The notes beneath the pieces were generated by a model, which was not told the origin of the DNA, did no database searches, and saw only the letters and a list, made by a program, of their open reading frames with translations. Of a stretch of 9,140 nucleotides of DNA, positions 1-6,842 are shown in pieces. Source of the stretch: a virus (Duplodnaviria > Heunggongvirae > Uroviricota > Caudoviricetes); the IMG/VR virus record IMGVR_UViG_2698536549_000008. One strand, 5' to 3'. The stretch's first letter is position 1. Each line of letters starts with the position of its first letter. A program made the position numbers and the translations under genes.

Positions 1-167
1 CAACGCGGACGGATAACACGAAATCCTGCGAACTGGCAAAACCTAAGTGAATAAAAGTAAAAAACCCGTTTGTTAGCAGCAGGTGGGGTTTTGTGTTTCC
101 TGACTCCGGAAAAGTCAAAGGAGAAAGTGTGTTTGATTTTAGCAAACTGATTCGGGAGATTTGAGTG

Positions 168-266
168 ATGGCTGAAAAATTATCCACCTGGAAGTTCATC
201 CTTATCTGGCTGGTGTTTGTGATTATGGCCCCCGGTTATTTCATCGGTCAGATACGCTGGTGGTGA
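168..266 (+). CDS. Hypothetical small single-pass membrane peptide (32 aa), directly upstream of Rz
   Basis: ATG at 168 preceded by GGGAG (154-158) and an in-frame TGA at 162-164; translation [32 protein letters not shown] has a ~20-residue hydrophobic core; stop TGA 264-266 lies 1 nt before the Rz ATG at 268. Not in the supplied ORF track (too short). No homolog recognised. Confidence 0.35.
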
Positions 267-267
267 A

Positions 268-679
268 ATGAACCGCGTTCTGTGTGTGGTCATCATTGCC
301 CTGCTGGTGGCCTGTGGTGCGCTTAGTCTGGGGCTGAATCATTACCGCGATAACGCCATCACCTACAAAGAGCAGCGCGATAAAAAAGCCAGAGAGCTGG
401 AGCTGGCAAACGCAACCATTACTGATATGCAGCAGCGCCAGCGCGATGTTGCTGCGCTCGATGCAAAATACTCGAGGGAATTAGCCGATGCGAGAGCTGA
501 AAATGAANNNNNNNNNNNNNNNNNNNNNNNNNNNNNNNNNNNNNNNNNNNNNNNNNNNNNNNNNNNNNNNNNNNNNNNNNNNNNNNNNNNNNNNNNNNNN
601 NNNNNNAGAGCGGTTGATGATGATGCAGAAGCAGCTGGAAGGGGCGCAGGAATATATCCGCACTCAGTGCCTGAAATAA
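268..679 (+). CDS. Rz: Rz i-spanin (inner-membrane spanin subunit), interrupted by the N gap
   Basis: First 79 aa ([79 protein letters not shown]) align residue-for-residue with lambda Rz as recalled; after the gap, [23 protein letters not shown] (608-679) matches the lambda Rz C-terminus. The track ORF 268..834 is an artefact of reading through the gap in the wrong frame. Confidence 0.9.
488..617 (+). CDS. Rz1: Rz1 o-spanin (outer-membrane lipoprotein spanin), embedded in Rz in the +1 frame; mostly hidden in the gap
   Basis: ATG at 488 in the +1 frame relative to Rz gives MRELKM..., positionally and sequence-wise like the lambda Rz1 start MLKLKMM; after the gap the +1 frame ends ...SG* at TGA 615-617, like lambda Rz1 ...ERG*. 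The lipobox and proline-rich core fall in the Ns and cannot be seen. Confidence 0.5.
507..606. other. Assembly or masking gap of 100 N
   Basis: Run of exactly 100 n characters. Rz and Rz1 frames on either side are offset by +1, so 100 is a placeholder; the true length must be a multiple of 3, about 150 nt if Rz is lambda-length. Confidence 0.97.
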
Positions 680-1668: not shown

Positions 1669-3568
1669 CTTTGCTGTTGTTTGTGGAGTGGCACTTCGTG
1701 GGCTTTTACGCCCACTGCCTGTAACCACCGTTGAATGGGCCGATCAAAATTATTATTTGCCCCCGGAGTCCTCTTATCTTGCTGGGCGGTGGAAGACGTT
1801 GCCCTTTCAGGTGGCAATAATGAACTGCATGGGTAATGACCGGATCCGCACAATTAATCTTATAAAATCAGCTCGAGTCGGTTACACCAAAATGCTGATG
1901 GGCGTTATTGGTTACTTTATTGAGCATAAAAACCGTAACAGTCTTCTGTTTCAGCCTACGGATTCTGCCGCTGAAGATTTTATGAAGTCTCATGTGGAGT
2001 CAACATTACGGGATGTTCCCTGTCTGAAAATTCTTTCCCCCTGGCTGGGGCGTAAGCACCGGGATAACACACTGACATTAAAAAGATTCACGTCCCGTGT
2101 GGGGTTCTGGTGCCTGGGTGGTGCTGCCGCCAAAAACTACCGTGAAAAATCAGTGGATGTGGTCTGCTATGACGAACTTTCCTCATTCGAGCCGGATGTC
2201 GAAAAAGAGGGCTCGCCAACCCTGCTGGGGGATAAGCGTATTGAGGGCTCGGTATGGCCAAAATCTATTCGCGGCTCGACGCCTAAAATAAAAGGCACCT
2301 GCCAGATCGAAAAAGCGGCCAACGAGTCGGCGCATTTCATGCGTTTTTATGTGCCCTGCCCGCACTGTGGGGAGGAGCAGTATCTGAAATTTGGCGATGA
2401 ATCCACGCCTTTTGGCCTTAAATGGGAGAAGGACAGCCCCGAAAGCGTTTTCTATCTCTGTGAACATCATGGCTGCGTGATCCATCAGTCTGAGCTTGAC
2501 CAGAGCAACGGGCGGTGGATCTGTGAAAACACGGGCATGTGGACCCGTGACGGCCTGACGTTTTTCAGCGCTGCGGGTAATGAAATTCCGCCGCCGCGCT
2601 CCATCACTTTCCATATCTGGACGGCGTACAGTCCGTTCACCACCTGGGTACAGATAGTCTATGACTGGCTGGATGCACTGAAAGATCCCAACGGCCTGAA
2701 AACTTTTGTGAACACCACGCTGGGCGAGACCTGGGAAGAGGCCGTGGGCGAAAAACTCGATCACCAGGTGCTGATGGATAAGGTCGTGCATTACACGGCA
2801 GCGGTGCCTGCCCGGGTGGTTTATCTGACGGCGGGCATTGACTCGCAGCGTAACCGTTTTGAGATGTATGTCTGGGGATGGGCTCCGGGAGAGGAAGCCT
2901 TTCTGGTGGATAAAATCATCATTATGGGGCGTCCTGATGAGGAAGAGACGCTGTTACGTGTGGATGCGGCGATCAACAAAAAATACCGCCATGCAGACGG
3001 TACCGAAATGACCATTTCCCGTGTCTGCTGGGACACCGGGGGGATCGATGGTGAAATTGTTTATCAGAGATCAAAAAAACACGGTGTTTTCCGGGTGCTG
3101 CCGGTAAAAGGCGCATCTGTCTATGGCAAGCCGGTGATCACCATGCCAAAAAACCGCAATCAGCGGGGCGTGTATCTGTGTGAAGTGGGGACAGACACCG
3201 CAAAAGAAATTCTCTATGCCCGTATGAAAGCCGATCCCACGCCTGCGGATGAAGCCACGTCGTATGCCATCCGTTTTCCTGATGATCCGGAGATTTTTTC
3301 GCAGACAGAGGCGCAGCAACTGGTGGCGGAAGAACTGGTGGAGAAGTGGGAAAAAGGAAAGATGCGTCTGCTGTGGGATAACAAAAAGCGGCGTAACGAA
3401 GCGCTGGACTGCCTGGTGTATGCCTACGCGGCATTACGTGTGTCCGTGCAACGCTGGCAGCTTGATCTGGCTGTACTGGCAAAATCCCGGGAAGAAGAGA
3501 CGACCCGGCCAACCCTGAAAGAACTGGCAGCGAAGCTGTCCGGAGGAGTGAATGGTTACAGTCGCTGA
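1640..3568 (+). CDS. A: Terminase large subunit (gpA-like; packaging ATPase and cos endonuclease)
   Basis: 642 aa, collinear with lambda gpA (641 aa) over the full length (e.g. [20 protein letters not shown] at residues 76-84 = nt 1865-1891, [37 protein letters not shown]); start overlaps the Nu1 3' end by 29 nt as in lambda. Confidence 0.95.
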
Positions 3569-3758
3569 ACTGCAGGCGCTGCGTCAGGCGCGCCTTGATT
3601 TATTAACCGGTAAACGGGTGGTGTCTGTCCAGAAAGATGGTCGCAGAATTGAATATACGGCGGCTTCTCTGGATGAGCTTAACCGTGCGATCAATGATGC
3701 GGAGTCGGTACTGGGGACAACCCGACGTCGCCGTCGTCCGCTGGGAGTGAGGTTATGA
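3552..3758 (+). CDS. W: Head-tail joining / head completion protein (gpW-like)
   Basis: 68 aa, same length as lambda gpW; LLTGKRVVSVQKDGRRIEYTAASLDEL matches lambda [32 protein letters not shown] SD at 3542-3546; start overlaps the A stop. Confidence 0.9.
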   Translation: MVTVAELQALRQARLDLLTGKRVVSVQKDGRRIEYTAASLDELNRAINDAESVLGTTRRRRRPLGVRL

Positions 3759-5347
3759 AACGAACGCCTGTCCTGATTGATGTGAACGGCGTTCCGCTTC
3801 GGGAGAGCCTCAGCTACCACGGGGGCGGTGCAGGATTTGGCGGGCAAATGGCGGAGTGGTTGCCACCGGCGCAGAGTGCCGATGCGGCCCTGCTGCCCGC
3901 GTTGCGTCTGGGGAATGCCCGTGCAGATGATCTGGTGCGCAATAACGGGATAGCGGCTAATGCGGTGGCCCTGCATAAGGATCATATTGTCGGGCATATG
4001 TTTCTTATCAGCTACCGTCCGAACTGGCGCTGGCTGGGGATGCGGGAGACTGCGGCAAAAAGTTTTGTCGATGAGGTGGAGGCGGCCTGGTCGGAATACG
4101 CAGAAGGGATGTTTGGCGAGATCGACGTGGAAGGGAAACGCACGTTCACGGAATTTATCCGTGAAGGTGTGGGCGTTCATGCCTTTAACGGCGAAATCTT
4201 TGTGCAGCCGGTCTGGGATACGGAGAGCACGCAGCTGTTTCGTACGCGTTTTAAAGCCGTGAGTCCGAAACGGGTGGACACGCCAGGGCACGGTATGGGG
4301 AACCGCTTTCTGCGGGCCGGTGTGGAGGTTGATCGATATGGCCGTGCCGTTGCGTACCATATCTGTGAGGATGATTTTCCGTTCTCTGGTAGTGGACGAT
4401 GGGAACGGATCCCGCGTGAACTTCCCACCGGGCGTCCGGCCATGCTGCATATTTTCGAGCCGGTGGAGGACTGGCAGACCCGTGGGGCCAATCAGTTTTA
4501 CAGCGTCATGGAACGGCTGAAGATGCTGGATTCCCTGCAGGCAACACAGCTTCAGTCGGCCATTGTTAAAGCCATGTATGCAGCGACGATTGAAAGTGAA
4601 CTTGATACCGAAAAGGCCTTTGAATATATCGCGGGGGCACCGCAGGGTCAGCAGGATAATCCGCTTATTAATATTCTGGAGAAGTTCTCCAGCTGGTATG
4701 ACACGAATCATGTGACGCTGGGCGGTGTCAAAATTCCGCACCTTTTCCCCGGTGATGATCTGAAACTGCAGACCGCGCAGGATTCAGACAATGGATTTTC
4801 GGCGCTTGAACAGGCGCTGCTGCGGTATATCGCCGCCGGTCTTGGCGTTTCCTACGAACAGTTGTCCCGTGATTACTCGAAGGTCAGTTATTCAAGTGCC
4901 CGCGCCTCTGCCAATGAGTCGTGGCGCTATTTTATGGGACGACGAAAATTTATTGCGGCCCGGCTGGCCACGCAGATGTTTTCCTGCTGGCTGGAAGAGG
5001 CACTTCTTCGGGGGATTATCCGTCCGCCACGGGCACGTTTTGATTTTTATCAGGCGCGATCAGCCTGGTCACGGGCCGAGTGGATTGGTGCCGGAAGAAT
5101 GGCCATTGACGGGCTCAAGGAGGTCCAGGAATCGGTGATGCGTATTGATTCCGGACTGAGCACGTATGAGAAAGAGCTGGCGCTGATGGGTGAGGATTAT
5201 CAGGACATTTTCCGCCAGCAGGTCAGGGAATCCGCAGAGCGGGAAAAAGCCGGACTCTCACGTCCGGTGTGGATAGCGCAGGCGTATCAGCAGCAGATAG
5301 CGGAGAGCCGCAGGCCGGAAGAGGAGACAACACCACGTGAGACGTAA
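3755..5347 (+). CDS. B: Portal protein (gpB-like)
   Basis: 530 aa; long collinear blocks shared with lambda gpB (YHGGGAGFGGQ, GNARADDLVRNNG, FEPVEDWQTRGAN, QLQSAIVKAMYAATIESELDT, LLRYIAAGLGVSYEQLSR, GRMAIDGLKEVQE); ATGA start/stop overlap with W. Confidence 0.95.
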   Translation: MKRTPVLIDVNGVPLRESLSYHGGGAGFGGQMAEWLPPAQSADAALLPALRLGNARADDLVRNNGIAANAVALHKDHIVGHMFLISYRPNWRWLGMRETAAKSFVDEVEAAWSEYAEGMFGEIDVEGKRTFTEFIREGVGVHAFNGEIFVQPVWDTESTQLFRTRFKAVSPKRVDTPGHGMGNRFLRAGVEVDRYGRAVAYHICEDDFPFSGSGRWERIPRELPTGRPAMLHIFEPVEDWQTRGANQFYSVMERLKMLDSLQATQLQSAIVKAMYAATIESELDTEKAFEYIAGAPQGQQDNPLINILEKFSSWYDTNHVTLGGVKIPHLFPGDDLKLQTAQDSDNGFSALEQALLRYIAAGLGVSYEQLSRDYSKVSYSSARASANESWRYFMGRRKFIAARLATQMFSCWLEEALLRGIIRPPRARFDFYQARSAWSRAEWIGAGRMAIDGLKEVQESVMRIDSGLSTYEKELALMGEDYQDIFRQQVRESAEREKAGLSRPVWIAQAYQQQIAESRRPEEETTPRET

Positions 5348-6842
5348 TCTTTCACACATTATTGCCGCAGCATTCAATGAACCGCTGCTTCTGGAGCCCG
5401 CCTATGCGCGGGTTTTCTTTTGCGCGCTCGGGCGCGAGATGGGGGCAGCAAGTCTTTCGTTACCACAACAGCAGGTACAGCTTGATGCTCCCGGGATGCT
5501 GGCTGAAACGGACGAGTACATGGCCGGAGGTAAACGACCGGCCCGTGTTTACCGGGTGGTGAACGGTATTGCGGTACTGCCGGTGACCGGCACGCTGGTG
5601 CACCGGCTGGGTGGTATGCGGCCATTTTCCGGAATGACAGGCTATGACGGCATTGTTGCCTGTCTTCAGCAGGCAATGGCGGACACCTCTGTCCGGGGCG
5701 TACTGCTGGATATTGACAGTCCGGGCGGGCAGGCCGCCGGTGCGTTTGACTGCGCTGACATGATTTACCGCCTCCGGCAGCAGAAGCCGGTCTGGGCACT
5801 GTGTAATGACACGGCCTGTTCTGCGGCCATGCTGCTGGCGTCGGCCTGCTCCCGACGGCTGGTTACCCAGACATCCCGTATCGGCTCCATTGGCGTGATG
5901 ATGGGCCATGTCAGCTATGCCGGTCATCTGGCGCAGGCCGGAGTGGATATCACGCTGATTTATGCCGGGGCGCATAAGGTGGATGGCAATCAGTTTGAAG
6001 CCTTACCGGCAGAGGTGTGTCAGGACATGCAGCAGCGTATTGATGCGGCGCACCGGATGTTTGCCGAAAAAGTGGCGATGTATACGGGGCTGTCTGTGGA
6101 AGCTGTCACGGGGACAGAGGCTGCCGTTTTTGAAGGTCAGTCCGGTATTGAGGCCGGGCTGGCGGATGAGTTAATCAATGCGTCGGATGCCATCAGCGTG
6201 ATGGCTGCGGCGCTGAACACACATGATACAGGAGGCACTATGCCGCAATTAACTGCAACGGAAGCCGCCGCGCAGGAGAACCAGCGAGTGATGGGGATCC
6301 TGACGTGTCAGGAAGCGAAAGGACGTGAACAGCTTGCCACGATGCTGGCAGGACAACAGGGCATGAGCGTTGAACAGGCCCGGGCGATTCTGGCTGCGGC
6401 AGCACCACAGCAGCCGGTGGCATCCGCGCAGAGTGAAGCCGATCGCATTATGGCGTGTGAAGAAGCTAAAGGTCGTGAACAACTGGCGGCAACGCTGGCG
6501 GCGATGCCGGATATGACGGTGGAAAAAGCCCGCCCGATCCTGGCTGCTTCACCGCAGGCGGATGCCGGACCCTCACTCCGTGATCAGATTATGGCTCTGG
6601 ATGAGGCAAAAGGGGCTGAGGCGCAGGCTGAAAAACTGGCGGCCTGCCCGGGAATGACCGTGGAGAACGCCCGGGCTGTGCTGGCTGCGGGATCAGGTAA
6701 GGCAGAACCGGTTTCTGCATCCACAACCGCCCTGTTTGAACATTTCATGGCGAACCATTCACCGGCAGCGGTACAGGGTGGTGTGCCACAGACGTCAGCA
6801 GACGGTGATGCGGACGTGAAAATGCTCATGGCCATGCCATGA
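5337..6842 (+). CDS. C: Head maturation protease (gpC-like, S49/ClpP-fold peptidase) with C-terminal scaffold domain
   Basis: 501 aa; N-terminal two-thirds collinear with lambda gpC (AFNEPLLLEPAYARVFFCAL, NGIAVLPVTGTLV, GAFDCADMI, SRRLVTQTSRIGSIGVMM, ITLIYAGAHKVDGN, GLADELINASDAI). Apparent GTG start at 5337 with GAGGAG 10 nt upstream, overlapping the B stop; start codon choice is uncertain. About 60 aa longer than lambda gpC. Confidence 0.9.
   Translation: MRRNLSHIIAAAFNEPLLLEPAYARVFFCALGREMGAASLSLPQQQVQLDAPGMLAETDEYMAGGKRPARVYRVVNGIAVLPVTGTLVHRLGGMRPFSGMTGYDGIVACLQQAMADTSVRGVLLDIDSPGGQAAGAFDCADMIYRLRQQKPVWALCNDTACSAAMLLASACSRRLVTQTSRIGSIGVMMGHVSYAGHLAQAGVDITLIYAGAHKVDGNQFEALPAEVCQDMQQRIDAAHRMFAEKVAMYTGLSVEAVTGTEAAVFEGQSGIEAGLADELINASDAISVMAAALNTHDTGGTMPQLTATEAAAQENQRVMGILTCQEAKGREQLATMLAGQQGMSVEQARAILAAAAPQQPVASAQSEADRIMACEEAKGREQLAATLAAMPDMTVEKARPILAASPQADAGPSLRDQIMALDEAKGAEAQAEKLAACPGMTVENARAVLAAGSGKAEPVSASTTALFEHFMANHSPAAVQGGVPQTSADGDADVKMLMAMP
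6240..6842 (+). CDS. Nu3: Scaffolding protein (gpNu3-like), in-frame internal start within C
   Basis: ATG at 6240 is in frame with C and preceded by AGGAGG (6230-6235), the strongest SD in the window; gives a 200-aa product sharing the C stop, matching the lambda C/Nu3 nested arrangement. Confidence 0.55.
   Translation: MPQLTATEAAAQENQRVMGILTCQEAKGREQLATMLAGQQGMSVEQARAILAAAAPQQPVASAQSEADRIMACEEAKGREQLAATLAAMPDMTVEKARPILAASPQADAGPSLRDQIMALDEAKGAEAQAEKLAACPGMTVENARAVLAAGSGKAEPVSASTTALFEHFMANHSPAAVQGGVPQTSADGDADVKMLMAMP
6285..6700 (+). repeat. Three tandem degenerate protein-level repeats (~40 codons each) in the C/Nu3 scaffold region
   Basis: Units RVMGILTCQEAKGREQLATMLAGQQGMSVEQARAILAAAAP (from 6285), RIMACEEAKGREQLAATLAAMPDMTVEKARPILAASP (from 6444) and QIMALDEAKGAEAQAEKLAACPGMTVENARAVLAAG (from 6585); lambda has one copy of this motif as recalled (SRIMGILNCEEAHGREEQARVLAETPGMTVKTARRILAAAP). 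The DNA copies differ at many synonymous positions. Confidence 0.6.

Follow-up and report, generated by a model that had tools for sequence, protein, structure and literature searches.

A reading frame abutting Rz is probably the 3′ remnant of a conserved 45-codon phage gene for a small membrane peptide

Comparison of a 9,140-nt stretch of tailed-phage DNA (IMG/VR record IMGVR_UViG_2698536549_000008; hereafter the window) with its relatives indicates that the 32-codon open reading frame at 168–266 on the plus strand corresponds to the final two-thirds of a conserved 45-codon gene that a rare nonsense mutation has interrupted. With a probability of about 0.5, we favor a reading in which this frame is the surviving 3′ part of a conserved late gene for a late-expressed accessory peptide of the inner membrane, which is truncated in the window. 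An accessory role in lysis is proposed more tentatively, at somewhat less than even odds. The window copy itself is probably impaired, and the chances that a functional peptide is still made from it are about even.

The frame corresponds to codons 14–45 of the family gene and opens at ATG 168–170, with GTG 165–167 as an alternative start. A GGGAG sequence lies at 154–158, 9 nt 5′ of ATG 168, and an in-frame TGA stands upstream at 162–164. The 32-residue product has one strongly hydrophobic stretch (best 19-residue Kyte–Doolittle window, 2.09), forming the membrane helix, and a C-terminal RWW. Its TGA stop (264–266) is separated by a single A at 267 from the Rz start codon (ATG 268–270), which gives a TGA-A-ATG junction at 264–270. 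The Shine–Dalgarno (SD) sequence, the upstream in-frame stop, the hydrophobic helix and the 1-nt gap to Rz had all been described in an earlier sequence-only reading, and each was confirmed. The window begins ~30 nt past the endolysin gene of a lambdoid, Stx-phage-like prophage. In the matching E. coli genome STEC1585, which is identical over window positions 1–507, endolysin gene R ends 32 nt before position 1, so that the R–Rz gap is ~300 nt; the proposed placement between R and Rz thus holds, but R itself lies outside the window. The gene order in STEC1585 is class II holin, hypothetical gene, lysozyme, the ~300-nt gap, Rz and terminase. No CDS is annotated at the ORF in that genome, and RefSeq has none beneath most of the matches in other genomes. 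The description of the frame as unannotated is therefore accurate for STEC1585, but relatives carry a 45-residue "hypothetical" or "putative bacteriophage protein", and the exact 32-residue peptide is a called protein on 31 contigs (P0023).

The Rz (i-spanin) gene occupies 268–679 on the plus strand, with its C-terminal frame ending at 679; it is labeled "lysis protein" in STEC1585 and matches PF03245 in homologous loci. A run of 100 N (507–606) within Rz stands in for ~156 nt of STEC1585 and hides part of the gene, including most of the embedded Rz1, and the 188-residue ORF reported by the ORF tool at 268–834 is thus an artefact of reading through the N run. About 250 nt past Rz, at 932–943, lies GGGCGGCGACCT, which we take to be the lambda-type cohesive-end sequence (cos); no bor-like gene is found between Rz and this site, and a Nu1-like small terminase gene follows at 1120–1668. 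Identity to STEC1585 is 100% over 1–507, 98.9% over 607–973 and 95.6% over 1730–5458, with no match at ~974–1729, thus indicating that the prophage is a mosaic when set against the closest complete genome, the break falling just past cos.

The 32-residue peptide matches PHROG 6632 with E=2.9e-19, its residues 1–32 aligning to profile positions 14–45, and the 45-residue form matches with E=6e-30. PHROG 6632 is a catalogued family without assigned function whose genes are 44–49 codons long (45 in the E. coli form). The window ORF, which lacks the first 13 residues and carries a Ser35-to-Pro change, is by this alignment a truncated member of the family, and we class it among the small phage accessory membrane proteins. 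GenBank relatives include the "putative bacteriophage protein" CAH23245.1 of phage CP-1639 and WP_000459345.1, both from the same family and the same position before Rz. A word-index search returned 81 homologues, and a family HMM built from 32 members, which recovers relatives, found 79 cluster representatives at E≤1e-3 in an exhaustive search of 1.84 billion proteins; a profile search of genome contigs gave two loci. The hosts are Escherichia, Salmonella, Enterobacter, Citrobacter, Klebsiella, Trabulsiella, Providencia and P. aeruginosa, and further homologues come from metagenomes. The unit spanning 59–266, described below as the cassette, was located at 1251 places distributed over 899 of 5426 complete E. 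coli genomes (17%), with several copies per genome and many copies in degraded prophages.

Searches of Pfam and NCBIfam gave no real match to the peptide or family, the PADLOC defence models none either, and sequences in the PDB a single chance match. Rfam yielded sub-threshold chance matches on window positions 1–500 and nothing on the whole window. Literature searches with peptide strings, covering full texts and the supplements of two small-ORF surveys, found neither the peptide nor anything bearing on its function. The papers on EHEC prophage sRNAs (AgvB, AsxR and the Pas sRNAs) place those genes near Q/stx or on the holin side, outside the R–Rz gap.

Across relatives, codons 14–45 have pS values of 0.5–0.9, near saturation, with pN values of 0.07–0.35, and Nei–Gojobori dN/dS is ~0.06–0.3 with synonymous sites saturated. 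Together with the PHROG 6632 match, this purifying selection bears out the earlier reading of the frame as a possible gene for a peptide with a single membrane helix. The proposed check for conservation gave an intact frame in 273 of the 281 sampled places, which goes beyond nucleotide-level conservation alone, and homologues at 30–50% identity retain the succession of helix, break and membrane helix.

In the window, the 5′ end of the ancestral gene can be traced at 129–164 on the plus strand as a GTG start, codons 2–11 (FDFSKLIREI) and a premature TGA at 162–164. In an alignment with E2865 and CP-1639, these relatives read CGA (Arg12) at 162–164 and start at GTG 129, with AAGGAG 5 nt upstream. 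The nonsense allele is present in 4 of 901 matching E. coli records. The frame is thus bounded by an upstream stop, as had been noted, but that stop is a derived mutation, and the 32-codon unit, taken at first for a native gene, is better described as what remains of a 45-codon one. Because of the stop at codon 12, the native 45-residue protein cannot be made from the window copy, and the full-length family architecture (DFSKLIRELRxM motif plus membrane helix) is absent from the window, where one ORF spans profile positions 14–45 only. Re-initiation could still yield the 32-residue part, and is plausible since TGA 162–164 directly precedes GTG 165 and ATG 168 and GGGAG lies upstream.

The strongest competing explanation, which we rate a little short of an even bet, is that the window copy is a decaying pseudogene whose 32-codon ORF is untranslated and without use. 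With the nonsense codon, the protein loses its best conserved segment, and the allele is limited to four genomes. Relative to E2865, Ser35 is replaced by Pro (231–233) within the membrane helix. Changes at 64, 75, 82 and 84 have also weakened the upstream hairpin P1, whose stability is −8.7 kcal/mol in the window and between −14.6 and −24 in relatives. Seven of the eleven differences from the nearest intact relative (506 nt compared) fall within the 208-nt cassette, but this excess is not significant (Fisher p=0.14). The stop–restart geometry and the internal SD sequence favor translation of the remainder, a natural lineage encodes the 32-residue part alone in a lysis cassette, and other copies with N-terminal damage (L152–L156, about 3000–3400) all keep codons 14–45 open. 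Among these loci, L152, L153 and L155 each have two rearranged copies ~250 nt apart that lack P1 and the start codon, in L156 the segment from P1 to codon 6 is missing and what remains is fused to the end of a baseplate-spike gene, and in L154 the cassette is intact.

Database entries of 32 residues were also considered as a true short form of the protein. This was mostly rejected: P0115 and P0071 keep an intact N-terminal extension upstream, their short entries being due to the start chosen by the gene caller, which is often the equivalent of ATG 168. Only the P0118 lineage is truly short, consisting of the 32-residue part alone.

The family pattern is x-D-F-S-K-(L/I)-I-R-E-(L/V)-R-x-M-x-E-K-L-(P/S)-x-W-(K/R)-F, followed by ~20 hydrophobic residues and usually RWW, which is the common C-terminal end among homologues. 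Conservation is highest in the N-terminal motif x-D-F-S-K-L-I-R-E-L-R-x-M, and conservative substitutions (K/R, I/L/V) occur throughout the N-terminal and membrane helices. AlphaFold2 modeling of a full-length relative gave helices at residues 4–17 and 20–43 (pLDDT 81). The full-length product is accordingly an amphipathic helix of ~17 residues, a Pro/Ser break, a W-K/R-F interface segment, a membrane helix of ~20 residues and RWW. Five basic and three acidic residues precede the membrane helix and three residues follow it; this charge distribution and the three-residue tail suggest that the N-terminus is in the cytoplasm and that the peptide is likely a tail-anchored, single-pass protein of the inner membrane. 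Two features of holins are present, namely a membrane helix and a lysis-cassette position between the lysozyme gene and Rz. The charged hydrophilic C-terminal tail typical of holins is absent, the charged segment being N-terminal. Spanin features are lacking as well, with only three residues past the membrane helix, no Cys or lipobox, and no match to PF03245 or related Pfam families. With 44–49 residues and one membrane helix, the product does fall within the size and hydrophobicity range of type I toxins (<~60 residues).

Homology between different genomic contexts extends from the A-run of P1 to the stop codon, which delimits a cassette of ~210 nt made up of P1, a short leader, a strong SD sequence, the start codon and the ORF. 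P1 (59–97, plus strand) is a terminator-like G+C hairpin flanked by an A-run and a T-run, with the stem at 65–87 and a T-rich tail, and forms the 5′ edge of the cassette. It lies ~35 nt upstream of the start codon in nearly all long-form copies, across contexts and hosts. Covariation supports the structure: 94.8% of cells are paired, and 36 double-change cells were counted, compared with 9.1 in shuffles (0/500), with slid controls falling far lower than the true alignment. The leader (98–128, plus strand) contains the ancestral SD sequence AAGGAG at 118–123, 5 nt before GTG 129, and a short, variable hairpin, P2. In relatives, P2 has 4–7 bp with the arms CCTTG/CAAGG, CCTG/CAGG, GACT/AGTC, CGTTA/TAACG, GGCAG/CTGCC or CCTTCTG/CAGAAGG. 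Comparison of the unpaired probability of the SD sequence with that in shuffled leaders gave no type below 0.05, and the SD is open in several types, which makes occlusion by P2 a weak possibility. The leader was also unremarkable in its thermodynamic z-scores.

Starts are GTG or TTG in the sampled enteric and Pseudomonas loci and ATG in three more distant full-length homologues (L286, L289 and L290). The G+C content of the cassette is 44%, compared with 53% in the flanks. A plus-strand promoter scan within the cassette, where only ~35 nt separate P1 from the start, found none, and no terminator lies 3′ of the gene, whose stop codon abuts the next gene. The 60 nt before P1 (window 1–58; L086 2375–2440; …GCGGACGGATAACACGAAATC…) are common to the lysis contexts of E. 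coli and Salmonella phage SPN3UB; since identity between the two is 68% over 380 nt, the block shared by lysis contexts exceeds the portable cassette.

Searches with tblastn and context look-ups, which answer the earlier call for a TBLASTN test of conservation at this position, found the gene between endolysin and spanin genes, but also in quite different neighborhoods, at least five in all. The commonest is that between endolysin and i-spanin genes, where the adjoining endolysins belong to the GH24 SAR-type, peptidase M15_4, GH108 and GH19 families and the spanins to Rz (PF03245), DUF2570 with LysC, or an unclassified pair of TM and lipobox proteins. Of 92 loci with an Rz-type gene downstream, 76 have a gap of 1 nt, and a CGCTGGTGGTGA(A/T)ATG junction precedes both Rz-type (PF03245) and DUF2570-type i-spanin genes. 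The abutment on Rz is thus a conserved feature, but the gene is not spanin-specific and also occurs in baseplate, tail and toxin–antitoxin contexts. The cassette is carried at the baseplate-spike/gp25-like gene junction of myovirus-type prophages, within a head/tail cluster and, in P. aeruginosa prophages, in an accessory island flanked by tail genes K and I. A distant member, P0093 (L286–L288, 1900–4700), lies in a type II toxin–antitoxin island just upstream of the terminase gene; the pairs beside it are ParE/RelB-like, YafQ/RelB, HicAB and BrnA. In the distant lineage with the 32-residue part only, the gene is ATGA-coupled in a run of small, holin-like TM genes immediately ahead of a lysozyme gene. 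All of the contexts seen are late or packaging-proximal phage regions. Lysis cassettes are the most frequent and account for about half of the independent contexts, with varied positions and partner families.

Further small frames were observed at related loci. A divergent member of the E. coli "AIKG" type (L112, 235–693; ~90 IMG/VR copies) ends in ...LIVAIKG and is followed 2 nt later by a 43-residue hydrophobic ORF (381–512), while the Rz start remains joined to an RWW-type 3′ remnant (MSNEIAVLVRAIRWW*, 647–693), an arrangement suggestive of a nested replacement in which the former junction survived. A small hydrophobic ORF with a GWGW motif lies 5′ of the cassette, where the endolysin gene ends or just past that point, in L086 (about 2290–2345; MAAVICFTAAFLLACDGRNGWGWFLLVGLFVMQALSA) and L294 (2158–2271; ...AISGNDGWGWLIFAGIIIL), and may be a second conserved micro-gene of the R–Rz gap.

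A role in lysis, which had been suggested from the position beside Rz, remains the leading idea in view of the placement between endolysin and i-spanin genes of several partner families, but the same cassette is also found without lysis genes nearby. A mechanism is proposed in which synthesis of the peptide would occur only upon read-through of P1 by antiterminated late transcription, as suggested by the position of P1 upstream and the lack of a cassette promoter; the non-ATG start would keep output low. During the lysis phase, the peptide would then serve as a dispensable accessory factor in the cytoplasmic membrane, where it would modulate holin timing, spanin timing or membrane energisation. 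Where the two genes abut, the conserved TGGTGGTGA(A/T)ATG junction points to translational coupling with the following i-spanin gene. In the window copy, ribosomes terminating at 162–164 could restart at GTG 165 or ATG 168 to give the 32-residue membrane part. Lambda lacks this gene, and its R overlaps Rz, which indicates that the gene is dispensable for lysis. Lysis genes are scattered in many phages, and contexts among structural genes are thus compatible with a lysis role. Conversely, the varied combinations of endolysin, this gene and spanin could stem from recombination in a conserved cassette instead of a functional link.

The 5′ part of the gene evolves differently from the rest. Over five independent pairs, synonymous divergence was 0.24 in codons 2–13 and 0.63 in codons 14–45, a ~2.5-fold slower rate in the former (Fisher p=6e-5). 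This part includes a nucleotide-conserved island at 135–170 (codons 3–14), which contains GGGAG at 154–158, ATG 168 and, on the minus strand, the extended −10-like sequence TGCTAAAAT (plus-strand positions 136–144). Individual codons are fixed against the usage elsewhere in the same genes: D3 is GAT in 39/39 (elsewhere GAC in 6/6), F4 is TTT in 36/36 (elsewhere ~50%), S5 is AGC in 41/41 (elsewhere 26%), E10 is GAG in 41/41 (elsewhere GAA in 32/32) and R12 is CGA in 40/41 (elsewhere 22%). Such fixed synonymous codons indicate a nucleotide-level signal overlapping codons 2–13, for which we infer two candidate sources. One is an internal ribosome-binding site, as the GAG codon of E10 keeps GGAG 9 nt before an internal ATG (Met14). 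The other is a minus-strand promoter, in which the D3–K6 codons would supply TGCTAAAAT as an extended −10 and the CGA codon of R12 the −35, giving a putative antisense sRNA of ~70–75 nt. The combination of a GTG or TTG start with an internal ATG that has its own SD is conserved in the sampled enteric and Pseudomonas cassettes, and position 14 varies farther out. A family-wide dual start was accordingly rejected: Met14 is replaced by Leu, Ile or Phe in distant homologues. A second promoter-like match on the minus strand (251–222) was dismissed because it overlies residues that are not conserved in other types. The broader idea of a two-layer switch, a gene for a 45-residue peptide whose first 13 codons also encode a promoter for an antisense sRNA, an internal ribosome-binding site for a 32-residue isoform, or both, appears unlikely on present comparisons.

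The putative antisense signal also raises an alternative in which the cassette is a type I toxin–antitoxin-like module. Here the peptide would be a membrane toxin, and a cis-antisense sRNA of ~70–75 nt, starting from the extended −10 in codons 3–6, crossing the start codon and SD and ending at P1, would silence translation until late transcription swamps the sRNA. Type I toxins with cis-antisense control include hok/sok, ibs/sib and zor/orz, and the gene resembles them in its hydrophobic product of <60 residues, in the putative antisense promoter within the 5′ coding region and in being a mobile, multi-copy unit; the terminator hairpin in the leader recalls Sok. TGCTAAAAT or a variant (TAATAT, TAGAAT or TAAACT) occupies the same place in all long-form cassettes, distant ones included, the synonymous positions that form it (D3 GAT, F4 TTT, S5 AGC) are invariant, and the R12 CGA codon puts TCG at the −35 with a 17-bp spacer. 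A- and T-runs on both sides of P1 could permit termination on either strand. Most copies have a non-ATG start, genomes carry several copies, and one homologue resides within a type II toxin–antitoxin island. However, the −35 is poor (3/6), the plus-strand form of P1 is slightly the more stable one in 24 of 29 sequences, no Rfam family matches, and the cassette has no conserved promoter for a toxin mRNA. Fixation of the E10 GAG codon fits an internal SD and not an antisense promoter, and the short-only lineage lacks such an RNA. Known toxins usually have an N-terminal membrane helix, whereas here a polar helix comes first and the membrane helix last, and the gene belongs to phage late operons. 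We consider this explanation improbable.

An equally doubtful explanation is that the gene is a moron that benefits the lysogen, its peptide binding a host inner-membrane protein and thereby blocking entry of superinfecting DNA or altering host membrane function. HK97 gp15, an example of a lambdoid-phage moron, reportedly blocks superinfecting DNA entry. Like morons, the gene is an extra one between conserved late genes, patchily distributed between otherwise conserved neighbors, deviant in G+C (below its flanks) and coding for a small inner-membrane protein; the P. aeruginosa island at the junction of tail genes K and I is a classic moron site, and the cassette is kept in 17% of complete E. 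coli genomes, many times in degraded prophages. Its hairpin lies 5′ of the gene, in contrast to the moron order of promoter, gene and terminator, neither a cassette promoter nor a 3′ terminator was found, and no PADLOC defence model matches. The weakest alternative, a chance ORF in the R–Rz spacer (an option that the sequence-only reading had left open) or an RNA-level element of terminator and leader with an incidental frame, draws on the shortness of the ORF, the strong hairpin and the nucleotide-level conservation of the 5′ part, but chance is refuted, and this whole explanation made negligible, by the retention of amino acids in codons 14–45 at saturated synonymous sites, the open frame in 273/281 places and the helix pattern kept at 30–50% identity.

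To return to the favored reading of a late accessory peptide, several small lysis proteins offer a comparison. Dual-start holins and antiholins such as lambda S105/S107 and phage 21 S68/S71 are likewise small, late membrane proteins of the lysis cassette with two possible in-frame starts and an RNA hairpin upstream. In contrast, the present gene encodes one C-terminal membrane helix and no charged C-terminal tail, its possible products differ by 13 residues where those of holins differ by 2–3, and Met14 is not conserved in distant homologues. The MS2 L-like lysis proteins of ssRNA phages share a polar or basic N-terminal segment, a C-terminal hydrophobic helix and very small size, but have no sequence relation to this family, which belongs to dsDNA temperate phages already equipped with holin, endolysin and spanin genes. 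The gene thus resembles holins/antiholins, type I toxins and morons in part, and fails one defining feature of each.

Since the window holds only a broken allele, the direct importance of this copy is small; the cassette architecture is unusual, and an intact allele is worth experiment. The family is present in many prophages of pathogenic E. coli (including Stx1a, Stx2a and Stx2c phages) and in prophages of Salmonella, Enterobacter and P. aeruginosa, and its usual site is the lysis cassette, which governs the release of phage and of toxin. Standard annotation pipelines usually miss the gene or take the wrong start. The fixed 5′ synonymous codons and the co-travelling hairpin offer a clear opportunity to test the overlap of coding and regulatory information within a gene of 45 codons. 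If a two-layer switch were true, it would constitute a portable unit carried by phages and comparable to a type I toxin or a lysis timer, spread among the late operons of enterobacterial and Pseudomonas prophages and carried by about one-sixth of E. coli genomes. If the peptide tunes lysis timing or membrane integrity, it would be a fourth component beside holin, endolysin and spanin in these phages.
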